54,059 bases of DNA from the IMG/VR virus record IMGVR_UViG_3300030107_001798, positions 1 to 54,059 of that record; one strand, 5' to 3'. Numbering within the stretch: position 1 is the stretch's first letter; every line of letters begins with the position of its first letter. Origin of the DNA: a virus. Taxonomy: Duplodnaviria > Caudoviricetes. This document shows positions 13,105 through 47,825 of this stretch, in pieces. Under the pieces are notes generated by a model, which worked only from the letters and a program-made list of their open reading frames with translations, ran no database searches and was not told where the DNA came from. Made by a program: the position numbers and the translations under genes.

Positions 13105-15864
13105 TTAAGTTAACTCGCCTTCTTCTAACATTCTCAAACTTCTTTCTATTCCTTGAGGTAGTACTTTTTTACGAACTTTTTTGTATGTTTTTTGTATTTC
13201 TTTTGCTTCTTTAGTGGGGTATAAACCAAGTTCTTGTTGTATTGCCCAACCAATTCTACCTTCATTAATTTGGGGTATATGTCTTTCAATTAATCTTCCA
13301 GCAAAACCATTTAATATCCTTATTGTTTTGCTAAGGTCTGTACTTTGAGTATTTAAATCATATTCTTGCATACCTGTAATAATCGTAAGCAATGAATCTT
13401 CGTCTAAATTTACAACATCCAACATCATTCCTATATCTATTATATCAGATGCTAATGGGCCTCCAAAAGTAGAAAGTATAGGGCCTTTACCATAGAATGC
13501 TTTTTTAATATCCTCATCATCCCCAGTCATAATAGTAGCAAGCTGATTAATTCTATTAGCAGAATCATGCTCTACAAGATTGTTAAAATTTAAACCAGTA
13601 ATTGCAGAAGCTATAACTGGAGCTAAAAAATAAGCAACTGCCATTCTATATGCTTTTTCTAGACCCCTAGCATCCCCATTTGGAATTAAGTTTCCTGCTA
13701 ATACATCTTGTTTAGCTTCTTTTAAAATTTTAACATTTCTTTCAAAAAATTCCATACTATAATGTTGAAATTGGAACATAAATCTACCAATTTTACTTCT
13801 AAAGGCTTTCGATTTTGCATAATCAGCATAATCAAAATGATTAAGAATAACCATATTTTTAGCATAGTTCTGTGCAATTTGTTGTATAGATGTTTCCAAT
13901 TTAGACTCAGAAAAACCTTCACCCCATTCTCTTTTTTTAGTTTCAGCAAACTGAGGATTGTCCTTTAACCATTTATACATCTGAGCAAAACCTATTTTAA
14001 ATGTGTGTTTTCTATTTGAATTTTCTGCTTTTCTATGTAAATAAGATGTTTTAGCTGCTATAGTTGATGTAAAATTTGCAAAATTTTCAAGTCTACTTTT
14101 TTCCCTTATTTCATATTTTCCTTTAGATTCATTCCAAATTCTTAAATTAAACATTGAAGCTGGTTCCATTAATCCAGTTTCTAATAATTGAGGAGAAACT
14201 TCATCAAATAAAAGGCCAGCATCTTTTAATGCACTTTCAACAAATACATTTGAATCAACCTCCACTCCCTTAGAAGTTTTTAATGTCATATTTTTTAATT
14301 GTTGATTCATTGTAGATATTTGAATCGGGCCCCATTCAACATAATCTAATAATCTTTGAGTAAAGTTTCTTGCAGCAGAGCGTGGGTTAACACCAAGCTT
14401 AGATATGAACTCAAAACCCAATAAAGACCTCATTAAAGCCCTAGTTTTGGGACTTATATCAGTATCTCCATTAGATGCTTTATGTAAATCTGTAATGTAA
14501 TCAACTATATTTTGCCCATATCCTTGAGCAGAACCTTTCATTTTGAATATTTTTTCAACACCAGATAAAGACCTAAGGAAGTGAGCATCTGTAAAAGAAG
14601 TAAAGTTAAATCTATTAACATCTGAAATATAGCTATCAACTACATTTAAAAAATGTTTACTATAATTATAATCAGCTTCTTCTGCTATTCCTTTAGCATG
14701 CTCACTAATATCTAATCTAATTTGATTAGCTATTTCAATAACTGTTTTAGGTTTGTCTTTTATATATGGGTTAGCTGCGTTTTGTAAATCATCTAAGTGA
14801 GGCATCATCTTCTGCATAAATGGAGCACTTAAATCTCTTACATAATGTGGAAAATAACCAGCTTTATATTTAGGCATAAGTTGTTCTCTTAGCTTTTCTT
14901 TAACGTCTTTTAATTCTTTTACTGATTTTTCATCACCATTAATCTTCATTCTTTCAATAATAGAATTAATTCTTTGGTCTATTCCACTTTTAAGGGATTT
15001 ATATAGGTCTTGCATCATAACATCATATTGAACAACTGCTTTATATAATTCCGGTCTTTCTTTTAAAGCAACCCCATTTCTATCTTTTACAATATTAGCA
15101 ATTTCTCTATCTGTTAATATAACTCTTGCATTGCCTTTATCAATTTTTTTTAAAAGTTCTTTAGAAGAAGAGTCTCCTTTATTAGCTTTATCTTTTATAA
15201 CATTATATTTAGCTTCTGTAGCTTCTTTTAATCCTCTTTCTACAACATCCATAAAATCACCAAAAGATTTTAATTCACCACTGGTTGTGAGTTTATTTAT
15301 TTCTTTCTGAACCTCAGAAGCTTTAGCATCATCTCCATCATTTATTGCTTTTACTAAGTCATTATCTAGTTTTGTCATTTTCTTTTGAGCAGCCCTGTAT
15401 CCTAATTTTCCGAGCATACTATTTATACCTGCGTCTTTTTGCAATGATGTAATAATTTCTTTAAATCTATTTCTATCTCTTAATTCATTTTTTCTAAAAA
15501 AGAAACTAGAGTTTTGCATATCTTTTAAATATCCACCAATCACAGGGTCTTTAGCTCCATAATGAGATGTTTGATAAAAGTATTGAGCAAATTGACCATC
15601 CAATCTTCCAGACTTTATATTTTGATTTAATGTTTTAAGTGTCTTTTTAAATCCATTAAGCCTTCCCTTAGTAAGTATTTCAGAATTTGTATCGTATTTT
15701 AATGTATCTAATTCAACAAGAAAATCTCTTTCAGCTAATCTAAAAGCAGCTTCATAAGGATTATTCATCTGTTTTCTGCTTAAATTAGATTTAGACCAAT
15801 TGTCTATAGTATCTAATAATTCTTTATAATGTGGATTTACGATATTGCAATTAATTGAAGCCAT
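13105..15864 (-). CDS. Large internal virion (ejection) protein; likely start MASIN at 15864
   Basis: Last gene of the late arm; TAATG coupling; helical, with C-terminal HFDY...QFQHYS and hydrophobic segments. Confidence 0.7.
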   Translation of the reverse strand: MASINCNIVNPHYKELLDTIDNWSKSNLSRKQMNNPYEAAFRLAERDFLVELDTLKYDTNSEILTKGRLNGFKKTLKTLNQNIKSGRLDGQFAQYFYQTSHYGAKDPVIGGYLKDMQNSSFFFRKNELRDRNRFKEIITSLQKDAGINSMLGKLGYRAAQKKMTKLDNDLVKAINDGDDAKASEVQKEINKLTTSGELKSFGDFMDVVERGLKEATEAKYNVIKDKANKGDSSSKELLKKIDKGNARVILTDREIANIVKDRNGVALKERPELYKAVVQYDVMMQDLYKSLKSGIDQRINSIIERMKINGDEKSVKELKDVKEKLREQLMPKYKAGYFPHYVRDLSAPFMQKMMPHLDDLQNAANPYIKDKPKTVIEIANQIRLDISEHAKGIAEEADYNYSKHFLNVVDSYISDVNRFNFTSFTDAHFLRSLSGVEKIFKMKGSAQGYGQNIVDYITDLHKASNGDTDISPKTRALMRSLLGFEFISKLGVNPRSAARNFTQRLLDYVEWGPIQISTMNQQLKNMTLKTSKGVEVDSNVFVESALKDAGLLFDEVSPQLLETGLMEPASMFNLRIWNESKGKYEIREKSRLENFANFTSTIAAKTSYLHRKAENSNRKHTFKIGFAQMYKWLKDNPQFAETKKREWGEGFSESKLETSIQQIAQNYAKNMVILNHFDYADYAKSKAFRSKIGRFMFQFQHYSMEFFERNVKILKEAKQDVLAGNLIPNGDARGLEKAYRMAVAYFLAPVIASAITGLNFNNLVEHDSANRINQLATIMTGDDEDIKKAFYGKGPILSTFGGPLASDIIDIGMMLDVVNLDEDSLLTIITGMQEYDLNTQSTDLSKTIRILNGFAGRLIERHIPQINEGRIGWAIQQELGLYPTKEAKEIQKTYKKVRKKVLPQGIERSLRMLEEGELT

Positions 15865-18800
15865 TACACTGCACACTTTTCTAGTTCAATTAATTCATCT
15901 TTCATTCTACGAAGTCTTTCCTCACTACTTTCGTCTATCGGAAGATTGTTTTTAACATTCTCAACAGATTTGCTTCTTTTATACATTTCTTTTAAACTAT
16001 CCATTCCTTGTTTTCCAGATTTTTCTAAATTAAGATTCTTAAAATAACTACTGCCGCCCATTAACGCATACACTGGATTATTCATTAATTTAGTAGTTAA
16101 TTCTGGTTTTAAATTACCTTGTTTTAACCCTAATCCAATTGTTTTTTGAGCAATATCTCTAATATCAGCATCCATAGAATTTCTAGCGTGGAGATAAGAA
16201 ACTGGATTAAGAATATTATTACTCATCATTAATTCTTGTAAATTACTCATTTGGTCTATATATGTATCAAATTCTTTAGACTTACCAGATGCCTCCATTA
16301 TGTCTTTATAAAAACTAAACAAATGGTCATTAAACAACCCAAAACCGTTTTTAATCCTATCTCCAGTTTTAGTCCATTGAATAGTTCCAAAATCTCCAAA
16401 TCGTTTTTCAAAATCTTTATGGAAAGTAGGAAGTTTAATTGCATCATATATTAATTTTTCTTGGCCTGTTGCTCCAAAAGTGAAAGCATCGCCCAAGTTA
16501 TCAGATACTAATTTTTGCATATCAAATTTTCTATCAAAAAATCTTTGAAATTGAGCTTCAGTAACTTGTATATAGGCTAATGCTGTTTGCGCAAGTGATT
16601 GTACTTCTGGGTCTATAACATCCTCACCAAACAATCTCATTTCTTTTCTAGATGCAAGTTGGGTTAAGAAATTCAAACCTCTTCTATATCTAGATGATGG
16701 GTCATATCCTTCTTTTGCTTCAAATGGAACTGCTATTGGGTTACCATTAAAGACTCCAATTTTGTGTTTATTTACAGATGGCTGCATAAATGCCCACAAA
16801 AATTTTAATCCATGTTTATTAACACCTCTTAACAATAATGCACTTTCTATGTCTTGATATGTATTCATATCTGGAAATCTTTCAAGAAATCTTTGCTGTT
16901 CTGGGCTAAGAGATTGCCTTCCTCCATATTTCATTATTTCACCAAGATTGTTCTGGCTTCCATAAAATAATTTTCTATATTGTTTTATGTCATTTATTTC
17001 TTGCCAAGCTTTTTGCCCTAAACCAAAACTATCATCCCCATTAATAAGTGGCATGAATTTTTTTATTTGTTCCATTGTTGAATAATAAACAGTTCCTTTT
17101 TTCATATTACTTGTATTTACATCAACAAATTCAATTTTTTGCAAATCTTTAGAAGACCATGTTTCAAGGTATTTTTCACCTAACCATTCTTTACCAAGTT
17201 CTTTATGCAATTCTTCTTTTAAATTATTAATTTTATCTATTGCAAGTTGTTTCTTTTGCCAAGTCATTCTCTTATTATATTTTATTTGCATTACTTTTTT
17301 ATTAAGAGATTTTATTAAATCAATTTTTTTATTTATATCCCAAGTAGTTTTCAAAACATTTGATTTTAATATTCTACTAGATGTATCTAATTCTTTATTT
17401 TCCATTCTATTGTCAAAAACAAACTCGTCATACCAATCATTTAAATATTCCCTTGCTTTACCAGTGAGAGTTTCTACTCTTGTTTCTTCAAATAAATTAG
17501 CATCCCATAATTTCCACAATGTTCTTTCAATTGGGGAACCTCTTTTACCTTCTGCAAATCCCCTAGATTGTCTCTCTACTGCATTTGGAAACATTTTATC
17601 ATTGTTTGTTACTTTCCATTTAATTTTACCATCATCACTTACTCTATCTTCCACTCCAAATAAAGAAATAAATTCATTACTATCTTTCCATTTGTCTTTA
17701 TTTGTTATATTTCCATCCTTGTCTTCTGCATAATTTTGATATTTATTTCTTAATCTATAGTATAAAGATTTTCTTAAATTTTGATTAAATTGAAAAAATC
17801 TATTAGATGCTTCCATTACATCTTCATAAGATGTTTTTTTCTGCTCTCCACTTTTTTCGTAAACAGAATCTCCAGTTACTTGTAATAATTTACCATATTC
17901 AGATAACATCTCTTTTACAATTGACATATCTAAAGGGCTTAAATCATCAATTTCTTTAAATGTACCATCATCTGTTTTAGTTAATTTTCTAAAAATTCTT
18001 ACCCTTTGTCCGTTATCAGCTTCTCCTTTTTTAGCAACTTGATTGGTGAAACCTATTTTATCAGAAACATTCATTTCTCTTAAATCTTTAGAACTTTTAG
18101 AATTATCCCAATTAGGAAATAAAAAATCATCTCTCCAAGAATATATATCATTAGATATTTCTTTATTTAAATCACCTTTACCATCTATAATATATTGAGT
18201 TTCGAGAGCAGACCTTTGATAAAAATCTGTATTATCATAATCCATTACAATTTTATAACCAGGCCCTTCATATAATATTTTAGAATTTTCTTCACCTTCC
18301 ATTGATATATCGACTGCCTTTCCAGTTTTAGAATCAACAGCTACTGATTGTCCTAAGTTTCCTAAGTAATTTAACATTCTGGGAACTTTTTGAACTAATC
18401 CTATAGATGATTTATATAGCTCTAATGCGGCTGACATTTCTTCAACTTTATCATTTTCCATTGTTGTATTTTGATTCCAATTAAATCCAGACGTTTTCAT
18501 TAAAGCTGTTGGGTCTACTCCCTGAACCCAGAATTGAGAAGTTCTTTGAATATGGTCATACATATTTTTTCTTTCAGCGAAAAAGTAATCTGCTTTATCC
18601 GCATCATAATCACCTTCAAAAACATTAACAACGTCTAGACTATTTACCATCATGGAATTTCCATATGTTTCATCTAAAAATCCTTTTAATCCCATCAATG
18701 TTAAATCGTTTGGCCTTGTTCTTGGATTTCTTCTAACAATAATACCAACTTGAAGATTAGGTCTATTGTTTTCAACACCCAATGTTTGTACTAATTCATG

Positions 18801-21800
18801 TAAATTACCTAAACTAATATCTATATCAAGATTAACACCAAAATCTTCTTTTAATTCTTTAAATATTTCTTCTGGTGTATATACTTTTGAATCTTCGACA
18901 ATTCTTAATTCATACCCCTTGCTAATTAAAGCAGCTACTTTCATATCAGCTTCAAAAGCAGGAAGCATTACTTCTCCCCTACTTTTCATAACTCCATCAT
19001 TGTCTACTAATGTTGCTCTTAATCTGGCATCTGGATGAGAAAGTGCAATAGGAGCCTGTATTAAAGAAGATTGACCTCCGTATCTTTCTGAATCTTCATG
19101 ATTAAATTGATTACTAACAGACCTTTTATTATTAATAAGTGGGTCTATATACGCACCATATATTTTATTTTTAACTATATTTTCACTATAGCTCATTGGA
19201 TTTGCATCTCTAGTAAGCCCAGCAAAAAAATTCATTCCATTTAAATGATTTAGTGATTCGGTTCCATCTACCATAGAAACAAGAGCGTCATCTCCAAATT
19301 GATTTCTTATCCATTTTCTCGTTGAGATAGGGTCTTTAATTTGTTGTTGAGCGTTTCTAAGGGACTCCGATAAAGGCCTTTCTATTTCATCTGCAAAATA
19401 CTTAGCAGATTCATCGTTATTTGCATAATTCATATCTGCGTGAGACCTTTTACCAGTCGGAAGAATAACATCTTTTTCAGGCTTAACTCCAATAGATTGA
19501 AGGCTTATTCTTCTTAATTGTTTTGTATTTGTTTTGTATTTGTTTAAGTCTTTCCATTCAGCGTCATCTATCATAGAACCTTCAATTAGGTTCATTGCTT
19601 TAGCTCCACTTGCAGATAATATAACATCTACATTTTTATTTTCTCTTTTTCCAAAAAAACCATCTAAATCTTTTGAGTAAACAAATAAAGTTTTACCCAT
19701 TAGCAATGGAGAATCTATTCCACCAGAAGCAATAACTGGTTTAATTGGATTAGTAGAATCTGGGCTATGCCCCATCATAGTGTGAAGATATTTCATCATA
19801 TCTTTACTTATATATGCTATACTATCAAAAGAAGATACATCTTTATGAGCATCTCCTATAATATTATCAAGGTCAATATCTATATTATTATCTTTTATAT
19901 ATTTATTAACTTCTTCTCTTACATCTGCATTTTTATCGTTCCAAACTACAACTCCAAATTCACCTCTTCTTAATCTATTTCTTAATACTTCTGCAGTTTC
20001 TTTATCTCCAATAGCTCTATAAGAATCAGCGACGTCTAATATAAATTCTTTATCATATGTAACGAATTTTTTTGTATCGTATAACTTTGTTCTTCCAAAT
20101 AATTTTTCAGTATTTAATTTGCCATTCATAAAATCAGCAAACAAAGCATCTCCATCGCTACCAACTAACATATCAGACAACATTAATCTTCTTAAAGCAG
20201 CTATATAATCCACCTCTGAGGCAAGTCTTTTATTGTCATCAGCTTCTTTTAAAGATTTTTGTATATCTTCAATTATATTTTTTTGTCTTTGGTTTAAAGG
20301 GCTTTCTTCTGATGTGTATAAATCTGCAAATTCATCAAACTTTGCTTTTATTTTTGGAAGGTCTGCATTTTTAATCGCTATAGGGCTAAGATTAGGAGCT
20401 AACCTCATAACAGCCATTCCTCTTTCACCGTTCTCACCAGTTAAATATTCACCATCTATTTGTTGAGCAAATCCCATTTCAGCATTAAACTCGTCTCTCA
20501 GTTTGTCTATTATTTTTATTTGCTTTTCTGGTAAATTATTATTTTTACCAAAAATATTTATTCTTCTTCTTTGTACTCTCCTACCATCATCATTATAAAT
20601 GTATTGTGTTATATATGGGTCTATATTCATGTATTTAATGTCAAGACCATCAAACAAAATATCCATTCTAGTGGTTTGTTTTACTTCTTTACCCTTTGTT
20701 AATCTTCCATTTTTCCATTCTACAGTTTCAACTTTTGCTTGATTTAATCTTCCACCTACTAATCCAATAAAATCAGCAATCATAGAAGGTTTCATTATAT
20801 TTTTTCTTGACTTAGGTAAATCTGAAAACTTTACCCAATCTGTTTTAGCTAAATTTTTAACATACAATCTATCAAATATTCCATCTAAGGATTCTACTTT
20901 TGTAACTTTCCTACCTTCCCAATCATCAAATATTAATTGATTAAACACTTCTTCTTGTTTTTTAGGTTCTGTTTGTTTTTTACCATCTATTCTATATCTA
21001 TCAAAAAATTCTTGAAGAGTAATTGTTTTTACATAATCACCCTCACCAGAATCAAGCATTTCTCTGTCTCTTGAATTCTTTTCTAATGTTTCATATATTC
21101 TTTCAGCATATTCTGGAGTGACCCCATATTGATTAATTTTTTTTGTCATTTTTAAAGCAACAATATCATTAAATTGCTCTAAGTTTATTTCAAATTTAGT
21201 TTCATTTTCTTTAAGACTTATTACTTCAAACTCATTTAACCATTTAAGCATTCTTGTTTCAGATTCAGGCCCACCTTCTTCTAATAATCTTCCTATTTGG
21301 TCTTGAAGCTTAGCAGAGCCAGGAATATTAGATTCTCCTAGAATATTTACAAACTCCATTAATGTTGCTTTAGCAGAGTTGCCAAAATTAGGGTCAGAAC
21401 CAAAAGGAAGTCCTTTATTTGGTTTTAAAGAGTCACTCATTATTTTTAACATTTCCATATCTGTAACCATAACTTTATCAGCAGATAAAGAAACTAATCC
21501 TTTGGAATTTTTTTGGATTTCCCTAACTCTTGAATTGTATTCTACAATATCAGATTCAGAAACACCACTTACCAATTCAGAGCCTTCATTTAATATTTTT
21601 TCATCTATTAATTTTAAAGTAAAACCAGATGTTTTTTTACCAGTCACGTCAACACCAACTGAAGCCATACCTAATCCAGATAAAGCCATTATCCCATCGA
21701 CATCACCTATAGTAAGGTCTGTTCCCTCAATCTTATCCCTAATAGCAAAATCAACAATGTGTTTATGCATCCACATGGGCATTTTAGATTCATTATAACC

Positions 21801-24532: not shown

Positions 24533-25798
24533 TTATGGAGATAATAGGTTTCGTTGTCTTTCAAGCTCTCTTATTGCTTGTTTTACTTTAACAATTTGCT
24601 CAGATTTACTTCCTCTTAATTGAGAATATATATTAGAACCGGGGTTAGCTGCCCTTTCACCATACCAGCTTAATCTTTTATATGCTCTATTTTCAAAAGA
24701 TGGAGAACCTGGCTCTGAATATCTTTCGTCTAATTGATTTTCCAATGAATTAAAGTTTTTTGAAGCTTCCAATATTTTTTTTGCATCTCCAATTTTTCTA
24801 AAATATTTCAATCTCTTAAGAGCTATTTCTCTATCTTCTTGAATTTCTTCATAATTATCTAAAATTTCTTGCCTTTCTTTCACTAAAGAATCTAAAGATT
24901 CTTGTAAATTTAATTGTTTTTGTGTGAGAAAAGATAACTTACCCCCAAGCTCTTCTCTTTCTTTTTCAGTTAAAACATCTTTTGAATCTTCTAAAATTTC
25001 TTCAACTGGTTTTGGGTCATATCCTTTTTTATAAATTCTTTCTCCGCTAATTTCTGCAGTTGGTTCTTCAGTTTCTTTTTCAATTAAATCAGCAATAGAA
25101 TTAATATCAGGTTTTAATTCTTTATCTTTTTGAGATTGAAATTCTTTAGCAACATCTTTGGAAAACATTCCAAAACCGCTTTGTATTTTTGTATCACCTC
25201 TAGCAAATTGAAATTGCTCTTTTAATATATCAGATTGATTTTGTAATGATTGCTTAGCTTGTTTACCAACTTGCCTCAACATTGATAAATTAGAAATTTT
25301 ATTAAAAGCGCCTAATAAATTTTTATCAGAATCGGTTCCTTTATAACCAGGTGCGTACATAGACTCAACTTTATTTGCAAGATTAACAATAGATGACGGG
25401 TCTTGAGTATTTTTATACTCCCACAATGCAGAAGCAATATCATTAGCATTTGCATCATTAAATTTTGCTTTAACGCCACCTATTTTATTTGATTTTAAAA
25501 TACTAACAACGGAAGCTAACTCATCTTGAGCTTCATCAGCATCTTTTATACCAGTAGGTACTATGTTAAGGACAGATTGTAATCCAGAATTTTTTATAAA
25601 ATTATTTGCTACGTTTAATTGAAGTTGCTTATTGGCGTTTCCAAGAACTTCCATTTGAATGCCAAATTCTTTAACTTGTGCAGCTCTTTTTTGCATACCA
25701 AATTGCATAAAAGCAAGAGCTTCTTGAACATCAGCCCTTTTACTTTGAATATTGTAATCTATTAATCTTTCTAATGCTTGTAATGCGTTTTGAGCCAT
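24533..25798 (-). CDS. Internal virion protein (coiled coil)
   Basis: Position between tail genes and the giant gene; helical composition. Confidence 0.6.
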   Translation of the reverse strand: MAQNALQALERLIDYNIQSKRADVQEALAFMQFGMQKRAAQVKEFGIQMEVLGNANKQLQLNVANNFIKNSGLQSVLNIVPTGIKDADEAQDELASVVSILKSNKIGGVKAKFNDANANDIASALWEYKNTQDPSSIVNLANKVESMYAPGYKGTDSDKNLLGAFNKISNLSMLRQVGKQAKQSLQNQSDILKEQFQFARGDTKIQSGFGMFSKDVAKEFQSQKDKELKPDINSIADLIEKETEEPTAEISGERIYKKGYDPKPVEEILEDSKDVLTEKEREELGGKLSFLTQKQLNLQESLDSLVKERQEILDNYEEIQEDREIALKRLKYFRKIGDAKKILEASKNFNSLENQLDERYSEPGSPSFENRAYKRLSWYGERAANPGSNIYSQLRGSKSEQIVKVKQAIRELERQRNLLSP

Positions 25799-26530
25799 TT
25801 AGAATATTCCTAAAAATTTTCTTTTTGATTGAGTTTTTGCAAGCTTTCTTTCAGATTCTAATCTATCTCTTTCAGCTTTTATTCTTGATTTTTCTTCTTC
25901 ATACATTCCACTAATCTCGCCTAAAGCTTTCCCATATTGACCCATCATTCCTTCTTCTGCATAATCAAAAGATTCTCTTATGTCTGAAGTTGCCTCGTCT
26001 TGAATTTCTTCTACCTGACCAGAATAAGCAAATCCAGTCTTACTAGATACTTTTTCAGTTTGCTCTAAAACAGATTGTAATTTTTTACCTGTAACTTCAG
26101 ATACTTGACCAAGCTCCCTTTCAGCTTCTTGAGTAATTAATTGTCTTTGAGCTCCTACTGATTCAGCTAATTTTACTTCAGATTCATCTAGAGCTGTTTT
26201 TTGCTTATCAATTAGTTTCATTTGGTCTCTAGCTTGGTCTCTTTGGGATTTAGTTCCTTTATATCCTTGATATAACGATAAACCAGCTTGTACTCCCATT
26301 AAAGCTAATTGAACCCATTTTTCTTCTTTTCCAGTAATTGGATTAATAGTTCCAGAGCCAATTAAATCAACTAACTTTTCACCACGCTGTCCATACATAT
26401 CCATTAATGATTTTTCTTGAGGATTAACATGCCAAAGTTCACCTTTACCGGGCCCTGTTTTTGTTGTTCGATACATTTCAGTATCGCCAAATCTTCCGTA
26501 TTTAGATAAATGTTTTTCTGCTATACTCAT
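25799..26530 (-). CDS. Internal virion/pilot protein; likely start MSIAEK at 26530
   Basis: GRFGDT...HVNPQE...GTINPITG motif, then a hydrophobic Gly/Ala helix and coiled coil. Confidence 0.7.
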   Translation of the reverse strand: MSIAEKHLSKYGRFGDTEMYRTTKTGPGKGELWHVNPQEKSLMDMYGQRGEKLVDLIGSGTINPITGKEEKWVQLALMGVQAGLSLYQGYKGTKSQRDQARDQMKLIDKQKTALDESEVKLAESVGAQRQLITQEAERELGQVSEVTGKKLQSVLEQTEKVSSKTGFAYSGQVEEIQDEATSDIRESFDYAEEGMMGQYGKALGEISGMYEEEKSRIKAERDRLESERKLAKTQSKRKFLGIF

Positions 26531-27078
26531 TATTGTAAAGCTTCCCAAGCTGATTGACTCATATCTCCACCTAAATGAAACTTATTTAACAAATCTTGAT
26601 ACTTGCTCCTATTTTGTAATGCGCTTTCATAAGAAACAATAGAAGCTTCTTCAAACATTGAATCAGTTGACATATCTTCATATTGAAAAAGATTAGACTG
26701 GATAGGAATATTGCGAGCAGAAATAGTAGATTCCCCAAAAGTCGCTTCCCCGACACCAGCTGATAATTTAGCAGTTTCCCAAATTCTTTGACCTTTAGTA
26801 AGTTCTAATCCTTCTTTATTTGTCATATCTCCTTTAACACCTTCTATTGTTTTTATATCACTTGCAGTACCTTGATAAGCGCCATAAGCTTTTGAAGCTA
26901 TATTTATAGCAGTTGATAGAGTGTCTATTTTTTGATTAAATTGATATAATTCTTCTTCTGCTATAAGAGATGAATATTTTTTTTTAGTATCAAAAGAAGC
27001 AACATCATACATACTTCCTTTATATTCGCCTTTTGACCTTCCTGCTGATACTGCTGCTGAGAATAAACTGTCTGCCAT
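26530..27078 (-). CDS. Putative internal virion protein
   Basis: ORF track; position. Confidence 0.6.
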   Translation of the reverse strand: MADSLFSAAVSAGRSKGEYKGSMYDVASFDTKKKYSSLIAEEELYQFNQKIDTLSTAINIASKAYGAYQGTASDIKTIEGVKGDMTNKEGLELTKGQRIWETAKLSAGVGEATFGESTISARNIPIQSNLFQYEDMSTDSMFEEASIVSYESALQNRSKYQDLLNKFHLGGDMSQSAWEALQ

Positions 27079-27101
27079 AATATTATATACTTTTACTATT
27101 T

Positions 27102-27130
27102 AATTTAATTAACATATGTTTTCTATCCAA
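27102..27130 (-). promoter_or_regulatory. Putative promoter for the internal virion protein genes
   Basis: Minus strand TTGGAT-N17-TAAATT; palindrome AACATATGTT 27111-27120 in the spacer. Confidence 0.55.
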
Positions 27131-27135
27131 TAACA

Positions 27136-28323
27136 TTATGATGTGTGAGCGCTTTCCGAAACATCAAAGCTTGCAGTCTCTCCAAATGGTTGAAATGAAA
27201 CATTTATTTGAGGTTTTATGTTTGAAGCGTCAGAATTATTAGTTTGTTGAGTAGCTCCGCTAGAAGCTTGATAATTACTACCACGGAGTCCAATATCAAT
27301 AACCAAATCCCAAAAAGTAGTAACATGAGCTGAGTTTGAACTATTTATTGAATATATTTTTCTATAATCAGCATGGCCTGGTAATTGATTATTAGAATGG
27401 CTATCAAAAACTAAACGATGTTTCCCATAAATCTTAATTGTATCTACAGGCGAATAATATGTATTACCATCTGCAGCGCTTATAGTCCCATCCGCATCTT
27501 GAGTCTCACCAGCTGATGTAGCTGCTCCTGTTGAAATTTTTTCAAAACCAGAACCACCATGCCCTAACTGAGCATATGATTCCATCCCTAAATCAGTGCC
27601 TAAAGTATCTTTATCATCATATATACCATTAGACAAAACATATTCATTAGTAACACCGGCTGCAGTAGCGGTATTAAAAGTTGGATTGTTTATACCAGAT
27701 GTCATAACATATGTTTGTCGATGTATAGGTCTACTTTTCCAAAAATTAGGTCTACTAGATTGATATAACCCATGACCAGAGGCATTATTAATTCTTGATA
27801 ACAAATGATATTTTACAAAATGAGAACAATAATCACCATATGGATTAGCACCAGAATTATCATTTAAAGTTTTCCAAGTAGCGGTTGCATCACTTCCAAC
27901 AGAAGTGCTTGTGTCATCTTCCCATTTTCCACCACTAGTTGCAAAGTTTCCTGCTTGTAGCTCAGATAATGTATCATAAGTGGTAGTGGGACTACTTGGC
28001 TGAGCAATACCACCACTTAAACTCATTCCGCCAGCAACATGAAAAACAAAACAATCATAATCTGCAAAACTATGTTTCATTCCCTCACGGCCCCTATCTT
28101 GAAAGGATGTAAATGCACTGCCGTTTTCAGAAAAAGAATTTGAATATTTAATTTCATTTGCAACTGTATGGTCGTTGCATTGTTGTATAAAATCATCTTG
28201 ATTATCATTGTCTTCATGATTAATAACATTAACATACAATAATCCAGATATTAATCTTCTATCTGGTATTTTTATATACCTAAGTTCTTTAAAAACTCTT
28301 TGGTTGTTTGTGTTAGAGGCCAT
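27136..28323 (-). CDS. Putative tail-associated protein
   Basis: Ser/Thr/Gly/Asn-rich; lies in the tail module. Confidence 0.55.
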   Translation of the reverse strand: MASNTNNQRVFKELRYIKIPDRRLISGLLYVNVINHEDNDNQDDFIQQCNDHTVANEIKYSNSFSENGSAFTSFQDRGREGMKHSFADYDCFVFHVAGGMSLSGGIAQPSSPTTTYDTLSELQAGNFATSGGKWEDDTSTSVGSDATATWKTLNDNSGANPYGDYCSHFVKYHLLSRINNASGHGLYQSSRPNFWKSRPIHRQTYVMTSGINNPTFNTATAAGVTNEYVLSNGIYDDKDTLGTDLGMESYAQLGHGGSGFEKISTGAATSAGETQDADGTISAADGNTYYSPVDTIKIYGKHRLVFDSHSNNQLPGHADYRKIYSINSSNSAHVTTFWDLVIDIGLRGSNYQASSGATQQTNNSDASNIKPQINVSFQPFGETASFDVSESAHTS

Positions 28324-28325
28324 AA

Positions 28326-34590: not shown

Positions 34591-34865
34591 TTTCTCAACC
34601 TATCTAATTCCTTTTCTAAATAATCAATTCTTTGATTTTGTTTAATATCAGCTGGAATCTCTGCATTCTGGTTAGCTTTAGCATCTTCCTCCATTCTACC
34701 AATATGTTCTTCATTGATGCTTACTTGATATTCCAAAAAAGATATTCGTGAATTTAACTCACCGTAGCCCCAAACCATAGCACCAATTAATGCTATCGCT
34801 TGAAATAACATTGGCAATGAAATATTAAGACTGCTTGAGTCTGATATAGGTTTAGTGTCTGCCAT
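34587..34865 (-). CDS. TM plus coiled-coil protein (lysis cluster)
   Basis: ISLPMLFQAIALIGAMVWGY helix followed by a coiled coil. Confidence 0.65.
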   Translation of the reverse strand: MADTKPISDSSSLNISLPMLFQAIALIGAMVWGYGELNSRISFLEYQVSINEEHIGRMEEDAKANQNAEIPADIKQNQRIDYLEKELDRLRK

Positions 34866-35169
34866 TTATTCTGCTCATCGAACCTTTTAATTCAGATACT
34901 TGGTTATCTAAATCGTTAATTTCTTTTGTAATAGCATCGAACTTTCTATCTAATTTATCATCGCTAGTGTTCCATCTACCTATTAACTTAATAATCATTC
35001 CTTCCATATTTTCAAGTGTTTCAGATTGCCCTTTATTTTCAATTTTTAAATTCTCTAAAGCTTCTTGTTGCGCTTCACTTTTCTTTGATAATGACATAAC
35101 TAAATAGACAAACATAACACCTACTACACCTATCATTCCCGCTTCGCCATATAATGCCATAAAATCCAT
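34852..35169 (-). CDS. Holin-like TM plus coiled-coil protein
   Basis: YGEAGMIGVVGVMFVYLV helix and coiled coil; BhlA-like architecture. Confidence 0.6.
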   Translation of the reverse strand: MDFMALYGEAGMIGVVGVMFVYLVMSLSKKSEAQQEALENLKIENKGQSETLENMEGMIIKLIGRWNTSDDKLDRKFDAITKEINDLDNQVSELKGSMSRINGRH

Positions 35170-36559: not shown

Positions 36560-39169
36560 TTAAAGTTTCTTTTCTAATTCTTCTACTTTCGCAGATAATT
36601 CTTGAACTGCTCTGACAAGATACATATTTAAATCATGTGGCGTAAACTGTAAAACATCTTTTAGTAATACTTCTTTTTCTTCTTCTACATCACCTACGCC
36701 TTCAACAATAATTTTTTCAAGATTCCCAGCTATATTAACAGCGTCAGGAAATACCTCTTTATATTCCTGAGCTATGAATGAATTATATTTTTTTGAAGAG
36801 CTTAACTCTGGATGTAGTTCAAGATATTCATCTGTATAATTAAAAGAAACAGGTCGTAATTTATTTATTTTATCAAGCCCATTTTCAATAGTCTGAATAT
36901 TGGTTTTGATTCTTTCATCAGATGTATTTGTCCAAGCTGTTCCTGTACTTAATCCAGCCGTACCAGTAACATCTAGTTTGTGCGAACCCCCAGGGGTCAT
37001 TGCAATCCCTAAATTACCAGAAGAATCAATACGGAGAGCTTCGCCAGTTCCATTAGTCCTCATTGTCAAATGGTCGCCATTATTATTATATCCTATTATA
37101 CCTCTATCACTATCAGCTGTATCACCAAAAATAATTTGTGCTTGACCATTTGTTCCAGTTGTAATAGCAAAAGTTGCTCCATCACCAGCTGCGCTTGAAT
37201 TACTTAATACCATTCCTATTTCGCTACTAACATAGCTTGGAACAGCAGATGGAGTATCCATTGCAATGTTTAATTTTCCTGTTGGAGAAGTTGTACCAAT
37301 TCCGACCCCACCTGATTTTAAAATCATTGTAGTGTTTAAATTACCACCATTCATTGTCCTAAAATGCAGTTCTCCATCTTCCGAGGTATCAGCTACATCT
37401 ATCGCTCTACCATAAATTGTTGCATACTCTGTTTCTTCAGGCGTACCAGCGTTATTCATCAACTTAAATCTTAAAGTACCAGTAATATCATTATTGGTTG
37501 CTGCACCAGTATTAACAAATACCACTTGGGGACTATTTACATTATCACCTGTGTTTTCTAATTTAATTACTGGCTTACCTTCAGCAGATGATTTTATGTG
37601 CAATAATTCATCTGGAGCTGTTTCGCCAATCCCAATATTACCTCCACCATCTATTGTCATTGGATTTAAGACAGTACCGCTTGAATTTTCTGTATAAAAC
37701 TCAATATTACCATCATGATGTTGATTCTTAATTTGTAAATTATTGTATTTACATAATATTACTTGGTTATCGCTTCCACCAGTACCTTCGGAATAAATAC
37801 GATAATTACTATCACCAATATAAAGCTGACCTTTAACTTCAGTTGTTCCACCAGAATGAATCCTCAGTCTTTCAGCAGGTGTTCCAGATGCTGATGTGTA
37901 AAAAAGAAGGTCTCCATCAGATGTTCCAGAGCCAGTTTTAGTTTCAAGATATACTAAGTCATCTTGGCTACCAGCTCTATTACCCATATATAACCTTGCC
38001 ACAGCAGTACTTCCACTATCAGTATGTCCTATGATTTCCACAGAACCTATATCTTCTGAATTACCACCAAGAACAGTTAGTGCCATTGCAGTAGAGTTAT
38101 AGTTAGGTGATGATGTTCCTATACCGACATTACCAGTGTCTGTAATCCTCATCTTCTCTGTTCTATTGCCATCTAAAACTGTCATAAAGTTCATATATGT
38201 ATGGCGATTACCACTTGAGTTACCCCATTCTGTTACTCCAGCTCCTATTGAACCCATATCTGCTATGCTTGTGCCACTATGATATTTAGACCAAAGAATT
38301 TCACCAATCGTACTTGCTGAAGTATCATCATCTGCATCTAATATTTGAAGATAAGCTGTTTGCGCTCCGTCTGCTCCGTCTTGTGAAAGTGATAATAATT
38401 TTTGAGGTGCATTAGTACCTATTCCGACATTGCCATCTTCATTAATTCTTATTCTTTCTCCAAGACCATCTGAATTGCGAGTTTTAAAAACTATATCGCC
38501 ATAATTATTAGCACTTCCTCGTTCTCCAAAAATAGCCGCATAATAATTAGCATGGTCATTATAAAATTGTATTTCAGCCGCATCTTGCCCGTCACTACCT
38601 CTAGCTGCTTTTAACATTAATATAGCAGAATTACTTGTGCCTCCAGTTTCATCTATTGAAATACTACCAGTAACATGAAGTTTATTAGCAGGAGATATAG
38701 TGCCAATCCCAACATCTCCATCTCCCATAACAGTTACTAAATCTGTACCAAGATTTCCAATTTGAAAAACTGTCTCATCGCTTCCTAATGCTGCGTGACT
38801 TGTTCCATTTTTCCTTGAACCTCTTATTTCTACAGCGGGAACTGCATCTGTTGGGTTAGTCGAGCCAATAGTACCATACATTTGAATACCAATACCAGCC
38901 GCATCGTCAGACATTCCCCTAATTAAAATTCCACCATTAGTGCCATGTAATTGCTCTATCGAACCATAAGCATTGGTTAAACCAAGCCCTGTCATTCCAT
39001 GAGCAACATTACTATCAAGATACATTACATTTCCATATATTGCTTCATCATATGAATATGTATTGCTACCAGGATTTACAGTTAAATCACCTGTAATGGT
39101 AACATCTCCAGATATTGTACCACCTGAAGATATTGCATTTGCTGTTGTTGATATAATGCTACTTTTCAT
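36560..39169 (-). CDS. Tail fibre with a C-terminal peptidase S74 intramolecular chaperone
   Basis: Repeated GNVGIGT motifs; TSDERIKTNI...LRPVSFNY...IAQE...AVQELS. Confidence 0.9.
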   Translation of the reverse strand: MKSSIISTTANAISSGGTISGDVTITGDLTVNPGSNTYSYDEAIYGNVMYLDSNVAHGMTGLGLTNAYGSIEQLHGTNGGILIRGMSDDAAGIGIQMYGTIGSTNPTDAVPAVEIRGSRKNGTSHAALGSDETVFQIGNLGTDLVTVMGDGDVGIGTISPANKLHVTGSISIDETGGTSNSAILMLKAARGSDGQDAAEIQFYNDHANYYAAIFGERGSANNYGDIVFKTRNSDGLGERIRINEDGNVGIGTNAPQKLLSLSQDGADGAQTAYLQILDADDDTSASTIGEILWSKYHSGTSIADMGSIGAGVTEWGNSSGNRHTYMNFMTVLDGNRTEKMRITDTGNVGIGTSSPNYNSTAMALTVLGGNSEDIGSVEIIGHTDSGSTAVARLYMGNRAGSQDDLVYLETKTGSGTSDGDLLFYTSASGTPAERLRIHSGGTTEVKGQLYIGDSNYRIYSEGTGGSDNQVILCKYNNLQIKNQHHDGNIEFYTENSSGTVLNPMTIDGGGNIGIGETAPDELLHIKSSAEGKPVIKLENTGDNVNSPQVVFVNTGAATNNDITGTLRFKLMNNAGTPEETEYATIYGRAIDVADTSEDGELHFRTMNGGNLNTTMILKSGGVGIGTTSPTGKLNIAMDTPSAVPSYVSSEIGMVLSNSSAAGDGATFAITTGTNGQAQIIFGDTADSDRGIIGYNNNGDHLTMRTNGTGEALRIDSSGNLGIAMTPGGSHKLDVTGTAGLSTGTAWTNTSDERIKTNIQTIENGLDKINKLRPVSFNYTDEYLELHPELSSSKKYNSFIAQEYKEVFPDAVNIAGNLEKIIVEGVGDVEEEKEVLLKDVLQFTPHDLNMYLVRAVQELSAKVEELEKKL

Positions 39170-43053: not shown

Positions 43054-44583
43054 CTATTTCCAGACCGCGTGTGCTTCGGGCATTTCCCATTGCATACCGG
43101 CCTCGGTTTGAATTAAGTCAACCCTTCGGTCAACACCACTATTCTCTAGAGTTTGAACTCCAACATAAACTGCAGTATCGCGATTTAAGCCATTACCGAC
43201 CAATGGTCTGTATTTGACATATTTCATATTTACTCCAACTATGCTTACATGAGTTCCGTCAAGGTGAACATTACGAGCCATATTCATTACACCATAAGGA
43301 GTATGAAATTGTGTAATATCTACACCGAAAACGTTTTTCTTGTTTCCAATAGAGAAGTCAGCTCTAGCCATTGAACTAGCAAGAGTTCCAACATCTTTCA
43401 TGTTCTGACTAAAGTATCCACTTAATTTATGCATCCAATTATATACTTCAGTTGAACACATAAATAATGTAGCAGCTGCATTATTGTATCTTGGGTCAAG
43501 AAAACTACTCATATCATCAAGAAAATCATCTTGAGACTTGGATGTACTCCAAGAGAATACGTTTCCATAATTAAGAGCAAAGTCAACCGCTCCTTGAGTG
43601 TATTGTACACCATCAATAGATGCTTGAGAGCCAAACAATAATGATGTTTCAATATCCCATTTATGTTCGATTAACTTTTCTCTCCAGATTCTTGCAAACT
43701 CATTAGGTTCATACTTCAAAACAGTTGCACGAGTTGTGTTGTCCATTGCCATTGAAGTTTTGAAGATTTGAGTTAGCCCAAAACCTGTGGAGAAAGGTTG
43801 GTCTTTCCAAGTTTCTGGATAACCAGTTCCTTGTCCGTGAGCTGAACCAATAACGTAGGTTCTTTTTGCTTCAAGAGAAGAATGAATAGATTCGTCATAT
43901 ACTTGAGTATCTACATCATCGCTTGACCATCCAGCTAAATAATTCGCACCAGAAACAGTTGGAACACGAACAACTGAACAATCCAATTGTACACATTCAC
44001 GACTATCTTTAGTCAAATTATCAGTAACTGCATCAACTTTACAAATTAAATGGTCAGCTACAGCTCCACCACCATCAGTTGATGATAAAGGAACTTTAAT
44101 TACTTGGCCCGGTAAGAAAAAATCAGGCCTTGTTCCAGAAGCTCCAACTGCGATTGCATTTGTTGATTGACCATAAACATTCTGAATATTTCCAGAAGAT
44201 TTATAATCTGTTGCCATATATAACTTAACAGTATCTCCAGTTGACATTGAAGTTGGAGCGGCTCCATCGTTGTATGCTACTAAATCAGCATCACCGCCTG
44301 TTCCACCAACAACTTGTGTATTGTCGTTTTCAATCCATCCAGTTACATATGCATATCTTTTATGATATGACGGACGACGCTCAGTGAATTTAAATTCTGG
44401 GTCATCCGTAGGTTTTTTAGCAACTTTAGTTACAAATCGGAAAAAAGGGTCTTGCGCTATTGATAGTTCAGAAACCCTGTCTCCAAAATTGTATTTTCTT
44501 CTAAGGTCACCAGTATCTTTGCTAGTACCATCAGACCAACTTTGTACGTCTGAATATGTACCTAGACTAAATACGTCTGCCAT
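43054..44583 (-). CDS. Major capsid protein
   Basis: Follows portal and scaffold; TQIFKTS, EHKWDIETSLLFG and TEAGMQW...AHAV patterns. Confidence 0.85.
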   Translation of the reverse strand: MADVFSLGTYSDVQSWSDGTSKDTGDLRRKYNFGDRVSELSIAQDPFFRFVTKVAKKPTDDPEFKFTERRPSYHKRYAYVTGWIENDNTQVVGGTGGDADLVAYNDGAAPTSMSTGDTVKLYMATDYKSSGNIQNVYGQSTNAIAVGASGTRPDFFLPGQVIKVPLSSTDGGGAVADHLICKVDAVTDNLTKDSRECVQLDCSVVRVPTVSGANYLAGWSSDDVDTQVYDESIHSSLEAKRTYVIGSAHGQGTGYPETWKDQPFSTGFGLTQIFKTSMAMDNTTRATVLKYEPNEFARIWREKLIEHKWDIETSLLFGSQASIDGVQYTQGAVDFALNYGNVFSWSTSKSQDDFLDDMSSFLDPRYNNAAATLFMCSTEVYNWMHKLSGYFSQNMKDVGTLASSMARADFSIGNKKNVFGVDITQFHTPYGVMNMARNVHLDGTHVSIVGVNMKYVKYRPLVGNGLNRDTAVYVGVQTLENSGVDRRVDLIQTEAGMQWEMPEAHAVWK

Positions 44584-45560: not shown

Positions 45561-47825
45561 TTATTGCTCATTTTCAGCGACATCTTGTTTTGCAGATTGC
45601 ATATCCATTTTCATTTGTTCTTTCATTTTATCAAACTCGACTTTCAACATACCTCTTAGAAGTTTTTGCTGAGCTTCAGTTTGTAAAACATCTTTTCGTA
45701 TTTCATTAGATGCATCACCAACTTTCATTTTAATACCGGCTTGCACTAATTGTCTTTGCAATGTTTCTATAGTTCCATCTTTATCTTTCATAGCCTCTTC
45801 CATAGATTGTACTTGACCCTGTAATTGAGAGTAAACAGATTTTCTTTCAACAATTTGTTTTTTGTTTCTTATATCTGTTTCAGCTATCATAGCTATGTCA
45901 TCAATTAGGCCCGCTTGGAACCATTTAAAATATTCTTCTAATAATGCCCATCTATTTACTGGCATCGTTGCTCCCGCTACAATTCTTACATCAAATCTTG
46001 CACTTGCATAATCTTTATATTTACCAATTACATCTCCATAATCATTATATAATTGAATATTAATTCTTACTTCTTTTTCTTGTTCTTGTGGAGATTGACC
46101 AGCTTCAGGCTGAACAATTCTAAAAACTTTTTCTATTGTATAATGTGATTGAGCCCTCATTTGAAAACATCTACCTAAATGCTCTAAAGCAGGTTCCACA
46201 ACGCTTCCCATCCAAGCTTTTAGTCTTCTAGTTCCAAATTCATCATTTGCAAGTAATCCCCTATATGTTTCAGCTTGGTCTTGAGCAAATCCCATCATTG
46301 CAGATGGAACGCCACTTATATATTCTGCATCTGCTTTACCTTCTTGGACTACGGAATAAAAAGCATTATTAATTGGAGCTGGCATAATAGGAGTTGGAGT
46401 TGCAAATCCTTGTCTGTATTTTAACAACGCACCAGGAGCTGATGAGTATTTTTCCCATTCTTCTTCTGGAACAGCTCCTTCTTCATACATCCACCTAAGA
46501 TTGGAAGCTAGATTTGCATTATGTAACATTATTTGATGAGCTTTATTAATTTCCTGTTGCTTTCCTATCAATGGAGTAACTGCACTCATTGGATACGGAG
46601 TTCCTGTGTACATATAAGGAACTGGAATTATTGGATATTCTTGAATAGGTAATGTATATTCATATAAAAATACATCATCACCAGCGCTACAAGTTTGAAT
46701 AATTCTGTTTTCATAAAACTTTATTGCATCTAATATATTTTTCTTTACTTCTGGGCTTTTTTCTAATATCCTATAATCCTTTTCACTCATTATTTGTTGT
46801 TTAACAACAGTAGCGGCGTCTTGAGCCTCAGACATTAATTGCATTTCTTTTTCTTTAATAGCTTGAGCTGCCATTTCTTGAGATTTTTTAATCTCTAACT
46901 GAGCTCTTTCTGGAATAATATCACCAGCTTGAACAGCTTGTTCAATTTGCATTTGTTTTTCTATTAACCCAACTTCAACTTCTTGTTGAAAATCTGCTAA
47001 TTGTTTTTGAACTTCTTCTTTTATATTGTCTAATTCGGCTGGCGAAGGTTGAACTCTTATATATACATTGTAATAAGCAAATTTCTTTTTATGATAAGTT
47101 TCATAGTATGGGATAATATCTTCATCTTCAGCTTCTAAACTTATTCCCATTGTAATATCGTCAGGTTGTATTGTTTCCCCTAAATCAATATCTCTTTCTG
47201 AGTAAGAAACTATATTATTTGCACTTGCCTTTATTTTTTTAATTTTAGCGGCGTGCTCTGGAATCATATTAATAAGACGACTTCTTGATATATTTTTCCT
47301 AATTGTTATAAAATTAGCATCTCTAAATAAAAAATCTCTACTAGAAGGGTCAACATATACATCATACGGGTCAAGTCTATTAAATCTTACTTCACCAGCT
47401 CCTCTATCTGAATCTTTATCTACATCTACAAGAAAATAACCAATTCCTTTTGTAAGAGCATCTAAAGCAACTTGACTATATAAAGATTTACCATTAGATA
47501 AATACCAACAATAATCTGCAATATCTGAATGAACTTGAGCCGTATCTACATCATCTCCAGTTGCTCCAACTGCTTTCCATTTAGGGTCATTAGCAGTTAC
47601 AAAGTATTTCATTATTTCTATTATAGGAGTAACCCTATTAATAGTAAATGTTGGCATACCCGATTCTTCTAATGCATCTTTTTCTTCTTTGGTTAATTGC
47701 TCGTTAAGGTAAAAATCATATCCCTTTTGAGAAAGAGTTTGCCATCTTTGTCTATGAGAATTATTTGCCCTATCCCATAATTGTTTATTTATTTGGGCTT
47801 TTGTTTTTTTAGTTGTTCTCGCCAT
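45561..47825 (-). CDS. Portal protein (P22-like)
   Basis: DFY..EQ, PTFTINR, VYVDP, QQEINK and ISGV; C-terminal coiled coil; 754 aa. Confidence 0.9.
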   Translation of the reverse strand: MARTTKKTKAQINKQLWDRANNSHRQRWQTLSQKGYDFYLNEQLTKEEKDALEESGMPTFTINRVTPIIEIMKYFVTANDPKWKAVGATGDDVDTAQVHSDIADYCWYLSNGKSLYSQVALDALTKGIGYFLVDVDKDSDRGAGEVRFNRLDPYDVYVDPSSRDFLFRDANFITIRKNISRSRLINMIPEHAAKIKKIKASANNIVSYSERDIDLGETIQPDDITMGISLEAEDEDIIPYYETYHKKKFAYYNVYIRVQPSPAELDNIKEEVQKQLADFQQEVEVGLIEKQMQIEQAVQAGDIIPERAQLEIKKSQEMAAQAIKEKEMQLMSEAQDAATVVKQQIMSEKDYRILEKSPEVKKNILDAIKFYENRIIQTCSAGDDVFLYEYTLPIQEYPIIPVPYMYTGTPYPMSAVTPLIGKQQEINKAHQIMLHNANLASNLRWMYEEGAVPEEEWEKYSSAPGALLKYRQGFATPTPIMPAPINNAFYSVVQEGKADAEYISGVPSAMMGFAQDQAETYRGLLANDEFGTRRLKAWMGSVVEPALEHLGRCFQMRAQSHYTIEKVFRIVQPEAGQSPQEQEKEVRINIQLYNDYGDVIGKYKDYASARFDVRIVAGATMPVNRWALLEEYFKWFQAGLIDDIAMIAETDIRNKKQIVERKSVYSQLQGQVQSMEEAMKDKDGTIETLQRQLVQAGIKMKVGDASNEIRKDVLQTEAQQKLLRGMLKVEFDKMKEQMKMDMQSAKQDVAENEQ

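Follow-up and report, generated by a model that had tools for sequence, protein, structure and literature searches.

The virus record IMGVR_UViG_3300030107_001798 of IMG/VR (Duplodnaviria; Caudoviricetes), analysed here over its full length of 54,059 nucleotides (nt) and called the window throughout, carries on its minus strand a giant open reading frame (ORF) of 2,888 amino acids (aa), P0001, the central third of which is, according to its predicted structure, a two-barrel RNA polymerase (RNAP) with the virion enzymes of crassviruses as its nearest characterised relatives. Studies of two-barrel virion RNAPs have dealt with one crAss-like phage and one Thermus phage, and the enzyme type is treated as a signature of the Crassvirales. 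By every marker tested, the phage is not a crassvirus and represents a separate lineage; it probably belongs to an uncultured family of marine podophages (~50-56 kb, guanine-plus-cytosine (GC) content ~31%) that would bring its own two-barrel RNAP into the cell, following the strategy of crAss-like and N4-like phages. Both enzyme and strategy are known, but the phage lineage in which they occur is undescribed and carries another host signal. The occurrence of this enzyme type in a phage of half the size, whose head and packaging genes are of another lineage and whose expression signals differ from those seen in Bacteroidota phages, would widen the known host and lineage range of the two-barrel virion-polymerase strategy. 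It might also provide a smaller model of the packaging and ejection of such enzymes and of the way they are directed to early genes, and it bears on the proposal that the eukaryotic RNA interference polymerases descend from phage enzymes of the two-barrel type. The features that carry this reading are the following.

15864..24530, minus strand: giant ORF P0001, 2,888 aa, with the predicted two-barrel RNAP in its centre
17475..20183, minus strand: predicted RNAP catalytic core (residues ~1450-2352) with two double-psi beta-barrels, connector and bridge-helix/trigger-loop region in the AlphaFold2 model
18597..18611, minus strand: DYDAD (D1974, D1976, D1978), candidate Mg-binding DxDxD motif in the conserved context NVFEGDYDADKADYFF

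P0001 begins with a GTG codon coupled to the stop codon of the upstream gene and consists of a helical N-terminus of ~1,400 aa with unassigned fold, the central two-barrel RNAP and a C-terminus of ~400 aa. It is the penultimate gene of the late arm before the strand switch, downstream of the genes for TerL, portal, major capsid protein (MCP) and tail. A phmmer search over 1.84 billion cluster representatives (50% clustering) retrieved 136 matches at E<=1e-3, the full-length ones all 2,700-3,050 aa long and uniform in the placement of the core. Eighty homologues of the full-length type (2,400-3,080 aa) display the same architecture and are metagenomic without exception, with Tara labels among them. 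In an alignment of 26 sequences with 21-67% identity to the window protein, the motif D1974-Y-D-A-D1978 is invariant in 26 of 26, and the invariant columns concentrate in residues 1480-2180. Equally invariant are an RxPxTRPxD block 35 residues before DYDAD (R1934, P1936, T1938, R1939, P1940 and D1942) and, in the region of the first barrel, K1597, P1598, G1612, K1613, T1614 and K1644. As in DFDID of the phi14:2 enzyme gp66, located at residues 1361-1365 in the phi14:2 paper, the DxDxD motif of P0001 lacks glycine.

The core was modelled with AlphaFold2 from P0001 residues 1450-2500 and 30 sequences, with a predicted local distance difference test score (pLDDT) of 79.9 and a predicted template modelling score (pTM) of 0.75. 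The Foldseek search of this model against the PDB gave 17 matches at E<=0.001, headed by 6vr4_A, the virion RNAP gp66 of phi14:2 (E 7.2e-11), with QDE-1 (7e-7 and weaker), plant RDR2 and the large, beta'-type subunits of multisubunit RNAPs as the next matches. By VIA-align, the Z score reaches 15.9 for RDR2 and 15.2 for QDE-1 (420-490 residues aligned, both barrels), 11.6 and 11.2 for the Thermus phage RNAPs with the small chains 8f5m and 8f72, and 10.5 for gp96 of Thermus phage P23-45; gp66 (6vr4), at Z 10.5, gives the longest alignment of 600 residues, with model residues 1-903 placed on chain residues 874-1815. This stretch of gp66 contains not only DFDID but also the connector (1095-1238), the bridge helix (1529-1559) and the trigger loop (1598-1636) as delimited in the phi14:2 paper. 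Searched against BFVD, the model has 33 matches at E<=0.001, mostly proteins of crAss-like phages: the top two are unnamed viral proteins (E 4.6e-59 and 9e-35), followed by proteins of uncultured crAss-like phages (E 1e-12 to 1e-8). The nearest Pfam-bearing cluster in the ESM Atlas is RdRP (PF05183, score 0.78), which is a lead only. Two barrels with connector and bridge-helix/trigger-loop region in the model, together with the invariant DxDxD, are the features of a single-chain two-barrel RNAP.

With respect to previously described enzymes, P0001 resembles gp66 and its Crassvirales orthologues (PDB 6VR4) as a single-chain two-barrel RNAP within a giant protein, but differs in length (2,888 versus 2,180 aa), in the absence of sequence similarity and in an N-terminal stretch of 1,000 aa without counterpart. 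QDE-1 and plant RDR2 align over both barrels with the highest Z scores (15-16); these are, however, cellular eukaryotic RNA-silencing enzymes, which lack the N-terminal extension of ~1,400 aa and the C-terminal extension of ~400 aa. The Thermus phage enzymes P23-45 gp96 and gp64/P74-26 gp62 are equally two-barrel single-chain phage RNAPs (Z 10.5-11.6), and gp96 is described as a virion RNAP (vRNAP) fused to a large ejected protein, as P0001 might be; P23-45 is, on the other hand, a siphovirus with a thermophile host, and the fusion partner of its enzyme is the tape measure protein.

The window is the full IMG/VR record. A CheckV completeness estimate of 96% and a near-terminal direct repeat (1-63 and 53995-54057, 97% over 63 nt, 57 nt exact) indicate that the genome is near-complete or closed and essentially whole. 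The second repeat copy stops 8 nt before the contig end and is followed by 8 differing bases, which are the probable reason for the IMG/VR end class 'linear'. The GC content is ~0.32, and at E<=0.1 the window has no Rfam match. Two gene arms are present: a plus arm from 53641 through the contig junction to 13053, and a minus arm from 53420 down to 13105. The minus arm runs from TerS over a metallophosphatase-like exonuclease, an endonuclease, TerL, an M15 endolysin, a P22-like portal and a 290-aa gene to an SU10-like MCP, small structural genes, the tail fibre, six unassigned ORFs (<=1,069 aa), the 2,888-aa ORF and a 923-aa ORF. An earlier note on this DNA had proposed a two-barrel virion RNAP in a small phage of separate lineage for the span 15864-47825; this span is placed correctly, bounded by the RNAP gene's end and the portal gene's start, and the small genome is borne out, as 107 IMG/VR contigs hold a relative of the RNAP and none of the 78 that were kept exceeds 56,056 bp. 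The two-barrel assignment of the note likewise agrees with the motif and with the ranking of 6vr4_A, QDE-1 and RDR2 among the structural matches.

The position of the gene, the giant fusion architecture, the finding of no other phage RNAP and the hypervariable early block beside the control region argue for a virion polymerase (a six-frame search with PF00940 for a T7-like RNAP was empty, but its control was found nowhere either). P0001 would be synthesised late, would be taken up into the particle as an internal or ejection protein, would enter the host along with the DNA and would there transcribe the opposite plus arm, beginning with the hypervariable early genes that adjoin the divergent control region. 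Middle and late genes would then probably be read by the host RNAP, with translation by canonical Shine-Dalgarno (SD) pairing. A comparable course is described in the phi14:2 paper: gp66, part of the virion, passes into the cell and there transcribes the early genes, with the host RNAP reading the middle and late genes. N4 provides the same analogy. For the window phage, we infer the catalytic activity, packaging and ejection, the transcribed genes and the host.

That the polymerase is real but not delivered by the virion, acting instead as a late intracellular enzyme (a non-virion RNAP like P23-45 gp64, or a primer-making or RNA-templated enzyme), is rather unlikely. The location of its gene in the late arm would fit such an enzyme, as would the VIA-align ranking of QDE-1, RDR2 and the non-virion Thermus RNAPs (8f5m and 8f72; Z 11.2-11.6) at or above gp66 and a genome in which no recognised primase or DNA polymerase was found. 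But a fusion of 2,888 aa, carrying ~1,400 aa of N-terminal extra sequence and encoded where the structural arm ends, follows the pattern of known virion RNAPs (phi14:2 g066 and MIF8 gp64), and giant RNAP fusions are noted for crAss-like and N4-like phages in the literature. The known non-virion two-barrel enzymes are small, with chains of ~590 aa in 8f5m and 8f72, and the best Foldseek and BFVD matches are the virion enzymes of crAss-like phages.

The lineage of the phage that would deliver its polymerase in this way was addressed with the head and packaging genes, which are located as follows.

43054..44583, minus strand: SU10-like MCP (Pfam SU10_MCP, E 1.2e-14)
45561..47825, minus strand: P22-like portal (Pfam P22_portal, 7.9e-45; phrog_156, 9.9e-50)
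48952..50520, minus strand: TerL of the phrog_38 type (phrog_38, 3.3e-73)

No match to Crass_capsid (PF23898) was obtained for the window MCP at E<=0.1, with SU10_MCP as the only match, whereas the control, the phi14:2 MCP, scores 8.4e-200 with Crass_capsid. The phi14:2 portal, the one control for this test, falls into phrog_6547 and has no Pfam match, in contrast to phrog_156/P22_portal for the window, although at the fold level crass portals have also been annotated as P22-like. The best TerL family is phrog_6681 for six of six crAss-side phages (phi14:2, crAss001, ProJPt-Bp1, Fpv3, phi17:2 and, from the epsilon group, csAssE-Sib) and phrog_38 for the window TerL and five of five of its best cultured matches, namely two N4-like or N4-related phages, two Zobellviridae and Campylobacter phage CAM-P21. 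By tblastn, the window TerL matches 438 phage records, all at <60% identity and the 30 best listed at 23-25%, led by phages of Pseudomonas, Ralstonia and Vibrio; the phi14:2 TerL matches 130 records, led by crAss-like, Bacteroides, Flavobacterium and Cellulophaga phages. In a maximum-likelihood TerL tree (18 rows, 585 columns, LG+C20+F+G4) with rows from the two BLAST hit lists and hence narrow sampling, the eight crAss-side rows are split from the other ten, the window among these, at 100/100. The window TerL occupies a long branch of its own (1.13) with no supported sister, grouping with Zobellviridae at 58/66. The flavobacterial sister families Pachyviridae and Pervagoviridae make up 93% of the marine Crassvirales contigs called by geNomad in a marine-virome paper, and the phi17:2-type TerL from their neighbourhood sits on the crAss side of the tree. 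Beyond these genes, none of 60 window proteins matches 60 kb of phi14:2, which include its whole late arm, by tblastn at E<0.05, and against 45 kb of the N4-like Erwinia phage MIF8 only TerL matches at E<0.03 (24%, E 2e-17).

In terms of sequence families, the module for head and packaging has no relation to its Crassvirales counterpart, and what is shared is the polymerase type and a general gene order; the proposal of a separate lineage in the earlier note is sustained by the MCP and TerL families, by the lack of late-arm matches to phi14:2 and by a TerL phylogeny without nesting in the Crassvirales. As in phi14:2, the RNAP gene (g066 there) lies at the end of the structural arm and one more large gene (g065) stands between it and the strand switch; this order is not diagnostic because N4-like phages have nearly the same layout. 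Among the traits of the Crassvirales, a large protein with two-barrel RNAP and DxDxD is present, its virion location being predicted. A genome of ~90-190 kb, the range given in a Crassvirales review, and an own PolA or PolB were not found: the genome has 54 kb, about half the size of that of phi14:2, and neither polymerase. Similarly, of the traits of the Schitoviridae (N4-like phages), neither the T7-like single-subunit vRNAP, the modelled core being two-barrel, nor the shared portal/MCP module was observed. The N4-like phages are nevertheless among the closest cultured TerLs (24%, phrog_38), MIF8 equally has a giant vRNAP gene at the end of the late arm, abutting a convergent replication arm, and the injected-polymerase strategy, attributed to N4-like phages in the literature, would be shared with the window phage. 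Differences are their T7-like single-subunit vRNAP, their genomes of ~72-80 kb and the restriction of window-protein matches in MIF8 to TerL. A side observation concerns the 125-kb cyanophage Lbo-JY46 of Leptolyngbya (PP438436.1), whose TerL matches that of phi14:2 (26.5%, E 5e-19), so that crAss-type packaging genes are not confined to Bacteroidota phages.

The expression signals differ from those of Bacteroidota phages. SD sites were counted as GGAG, GAGG or AGGA at positions -18 to -4 of the start and compared with internal ATGs. In the window, 37 of 64 starts (58%) are led by such a site versus 97 of 1,359 internal ATGs (7%; Fisher p 9e-24). The two Bacteroidota crassviruses stay at 9-10%, with four of 44 starts in the Cellulophaga phage phi14:2 (internal-ATG background 83/1,025) and two of 21 in the Bacteroides phage crAss001, whereas the SAR11 phage HTVC134P of Pelagibacter (GC 0.337) reaches 30/52 (58%) and MIF8 10/13. 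Over 78 related loci, examined with a cruder ORF caller, 407 of 1,018 starts versus 2,945 of 37,939 controls are SD-led, and the early arm is again the richer one. Since the ribosomes of Bacteroidetes do without SD pairing (PMC7797042), this signal would place the host outside the Bacteroidota. As to promoters, sigma70-like sites (TTG-type -35 plus -10) within 1-16000 amount to 64 versus 87.5 +/- 7.9 in shuffles, that is, fewer; the pattern TTGnnn-N16-18-TAnnnT occurs at 2.2 per kb in intergenic DNA versus 1.3 per kb on the coding strand overall. Four intergenic sites have TTG-N17-19-TTAAATT in common, and upstream of one operon 13 of 13 relatives keep a TAAATT-like word, a hint of a -10 element of the host type. 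The Bacteroidota word TAnnTTTG is not enriched in intergenic DNA (0.82 versus 0.81 per kb).

The tail fibre gives a further indication.

36560..39169, minus strand: tail fibre, 869 aa (PHROG tail-fibre families, E 3.5e-35)

Its relatives by tblastn, 46 phage records at 25-27% identity, belong to phages of Synechococcus (19), Pelagibacter (6) and Roseobacter (5), to records named Cyanophage (5) and to other phages, with Prochlorococcus, a methylophilale and a few bacteria of soil or enteric origin as hosts, and none of the 46 is a Flavobacteria phage, which is weakly consistent with a host outside the Bacteroidota. The relatives of the DnaB-like helicase gave no host lead. The labels Pacearchaeota and Pseudomonadota, borne by metagenome-assembled genomes in the homologue clusters, were taken as binning artefacts, all other cluster names being 'hypothetical'. 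A low-GC pelagic bacterium that uses SD pairing, SAR11-like or otherwise outside the Bacteroidota, is the most likely host. Of what the earlier note had stated about expression and host, the SD sites in most genes hold for the early plus arm (22/28) and not for the late minus arm (about 42%); the TTG-type -35/-10 promoters are weakly supported, as they do not rise above chance genome-wide; and a different host phylum is backed indirectly by the SD share and the tail-fibre relatives, with no direct host link found.

A deep-branching, genome-reduced member of the Crassvirales or of their flavobacterial sister group on marine Bacteroidota would account for the polymerase type, for the order of TerL, portal, MCP, tail, large proteins, RNAP and last large protein, for the metallophosphatase-like and PD-(D/E)XK genes, both in the crass core-gene list, and for a low GC content similar to that of marine crass clades (34%). 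Such a member is very unlikely in view of the missing Crass_capsid match, the TerL family and the 100/100 split of the TerL tree, the lack of any phi14:2 match among the window proteins, the SD share of 58% versus 9-10% and a tail fibre without relatives in Flavobacteria phages. Highly improbable is a two-barrel region that persists as a relic without polymerase activity in a mere ejection or internal scaffold protein: the lack of a sequence-level match of P0001 to RNAP families would be compatible with it, but three aspartates and about 30 more core residues are invariant across homologues of 21-67% identity and the architecture is kept in all full-length representatives, which points to purifying selection on the active site.

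A number of results weigh against an RNAP brought into the cell by the virion of a phage with a non-Bacteroidota host. No sequence method ties P0001 to any RNAP family: PHROGs, Pfam (no RdRP match at E<=0.1), phmmer against the PDB and hmmsearch of the PDB with the profile of the 26-sequence family gave no match, tblastn against 50,697 phage records was negative, and so was hhalign of the family against phi14:2 gp66 (probability 0.3%) and against the vRNAP of MIF8 (0.4%), so that the RNAP assignment is built on predicted structure and one motif. For the 1,000 N-terminal residues, modelled as mostly helical at pLDDT 74.8, the PDB yielded nothing at E<=0.001 (best E 0.064), the N-terminal part of gp66 included, which would confine homology with the crass enzyme to the core. 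As the RNA-dependent enzymes QDE-1 and RDR2 stand above gp66 by Z score, the preferred template may be DNA or RNA. A common early-promoter motif was not found, the k-mers enriched in the intergenic regions of the plus arm being duplicates of the terminal repeat and SD-like words. Only 15 of 36 late-arm starts are SD-led (~42%). With respect to the host, an RNAP-profile scan of 185,579 GTDB species genomes yielded 133 pattern matches and no relatives, and neither the window nor 101 related loci contain a tRNA.

The family that would pursue this virion-polymerase strategy is uncultured, purely metagenomic, marine and common in marine metagenomes. At least 585 IMG/VR contigs have a relative of the window TerL, the best 80 at 86-100% identity; the GC content of the 78 related loci is 0.27-0.37 with a median of 0.31; and the habitat is given by marine metagenome runs, with a share of 0.23 or more in two studies. 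No published description of such a family was found in full-text searches of the literature, although the supplementary lists of crAss-like or 'sister' contigs of PMC13558084 and PMC11502894 may contain relatives.

Among its members, the block of presumably ejected proteins behaves differently from the packaging genes. This block comprises, next to P0001, the following features.

13105..15876, minus strand: 923-aa protein, product of the last late-arm gene, which likely acts with the RNAP or is ejected along with it
24533..33154, minus strand: six ORFs (421, 249, 182, 395, 539 and 1,069 aa) that separate the RNAP from the tail genes, with putative tail or internal (ejected) proteins as products

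The 923-aa gene holds the place of phi14:2 g065 ('RNA polymerase associated protein'); its product has no family match in PHROGs or Pfam, and the six ORFs have no informative family there. In contigs with both genes and TerL 90-93% identical, the RNAP is 76, 27, 30 or 29% identical, and the 923-aa protein tracks it with 89, 32, 32 and 33%; across relatives, 89% of the 923-aa protein goes with 76% of the RNAP, 60% with 46% and 32% with 27%. The replication genes of these contigs show 50-85% identity, and the six-ORF block is the most divergent part of the genome among relatives, with 0-57%. The region 13105-29945 with the RNAP, its 923-aa neighbour and the adjacent large ORFs is 27-35% identical or unmatched in comparison with the loci L047/L152, L054/L142, L065/L137 and L045/L083. 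The ejected-protein block would either evolve much faster than the rest or be exchanged as a cassette. We regard it as a tentative and somewhat doubtful idea that the two-barrel vRNAP and its 923-aa partner form a mobile cassette between unrelated podophage backbones, by which the 'crAss' strategy was carried onto SD-using oligotrophs such as SAR11; if true, the two-barrel vRNAP would be an ancient solution that does not depend on lineage, rather than a hallmark of crassviruses.

Elsewhere in the late arm, lysis functions are represented by one assigned gene.

48092-48472, minus strand: M15 endolysin

Distant from it, two adjacent small proteins of 92 and 105 aa (34587-35169, minus strand), each with one N-terminal hydrophobic segment, are possible holin or spanin-like lysis proteins.

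The plus arm, the candidate target of the virion polymerase, comprises the control region, the early genes and the replication genes.

53421-53640: divergent control region
53641..54059, plus strand: start of the plus arm, with the first gene at 53641-53895 (84 aa, AAGGAG upstream)
76..13053, plus strand: early and replication arm, 22 of 28 genes SD-led
early arm, plus strand: helix-turn-helix protein and DUF932 protein
4637-5419, plus strand: PD-(D/E)XK nuclease
5429-6067, plus strand: Rad52-like protein
9849-10757, plus strand: DNA methyltransferase
10770-12083, plus strand: DnaB-like helicase
12372-12872, plus strand: Holliday-junction resolvase

Neither PolA nor PolB was detected in six frames of the window, the positive controls being found in 10 and 6 of 14 reference genomes, and no recognisable primase was found beside the DnaB-like helicase. 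Without a DNA polymerase or recognised primase, the two-barrel polymerase is a conceivable source of primers for replication. Among 80 close relatives, the packaging genes and the region 4.5-7.5 kb are well conserved, and the hypervariable early block (~53700-54059 plus 1-4500, ~4.8 kb) aligns with very few of them. This block, with long non-coding stretches at 742-1242 and 1718-2101, resembles a host-takeover region.

A conserved intergenic element at 7285-7361 on the plus strand, upstream of the gene 7386-7637, is a candidate H-type pseudoknot with two crossing helices, H1 (7293-7300 with 7326-7333) and H2 (7301-7307 with 7355-7361), with a conserved GTAAATT ahead of it and an SD site and start codon behind it. 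Over 13 sequences, 193 of 193 cells pair, a value reached by none of 500 shuffles; change on both sides is seen in five of 15 pairs (3/500 shuffles), and slid controls pair at 38-62%. Owing to G-U pairs, the element is specific for the plus strand, and it is probably a regulatory RNA of the 5' untranslated region. Two further intergenic stretches of the plus strand, 3303-3420 and 4427-4636, have folding z scores of -3.8 and -3.5 versus mononucleotide shuffles, with a G+C-rich stem of 8-9 bp closing a long A+T-rich loop in each.

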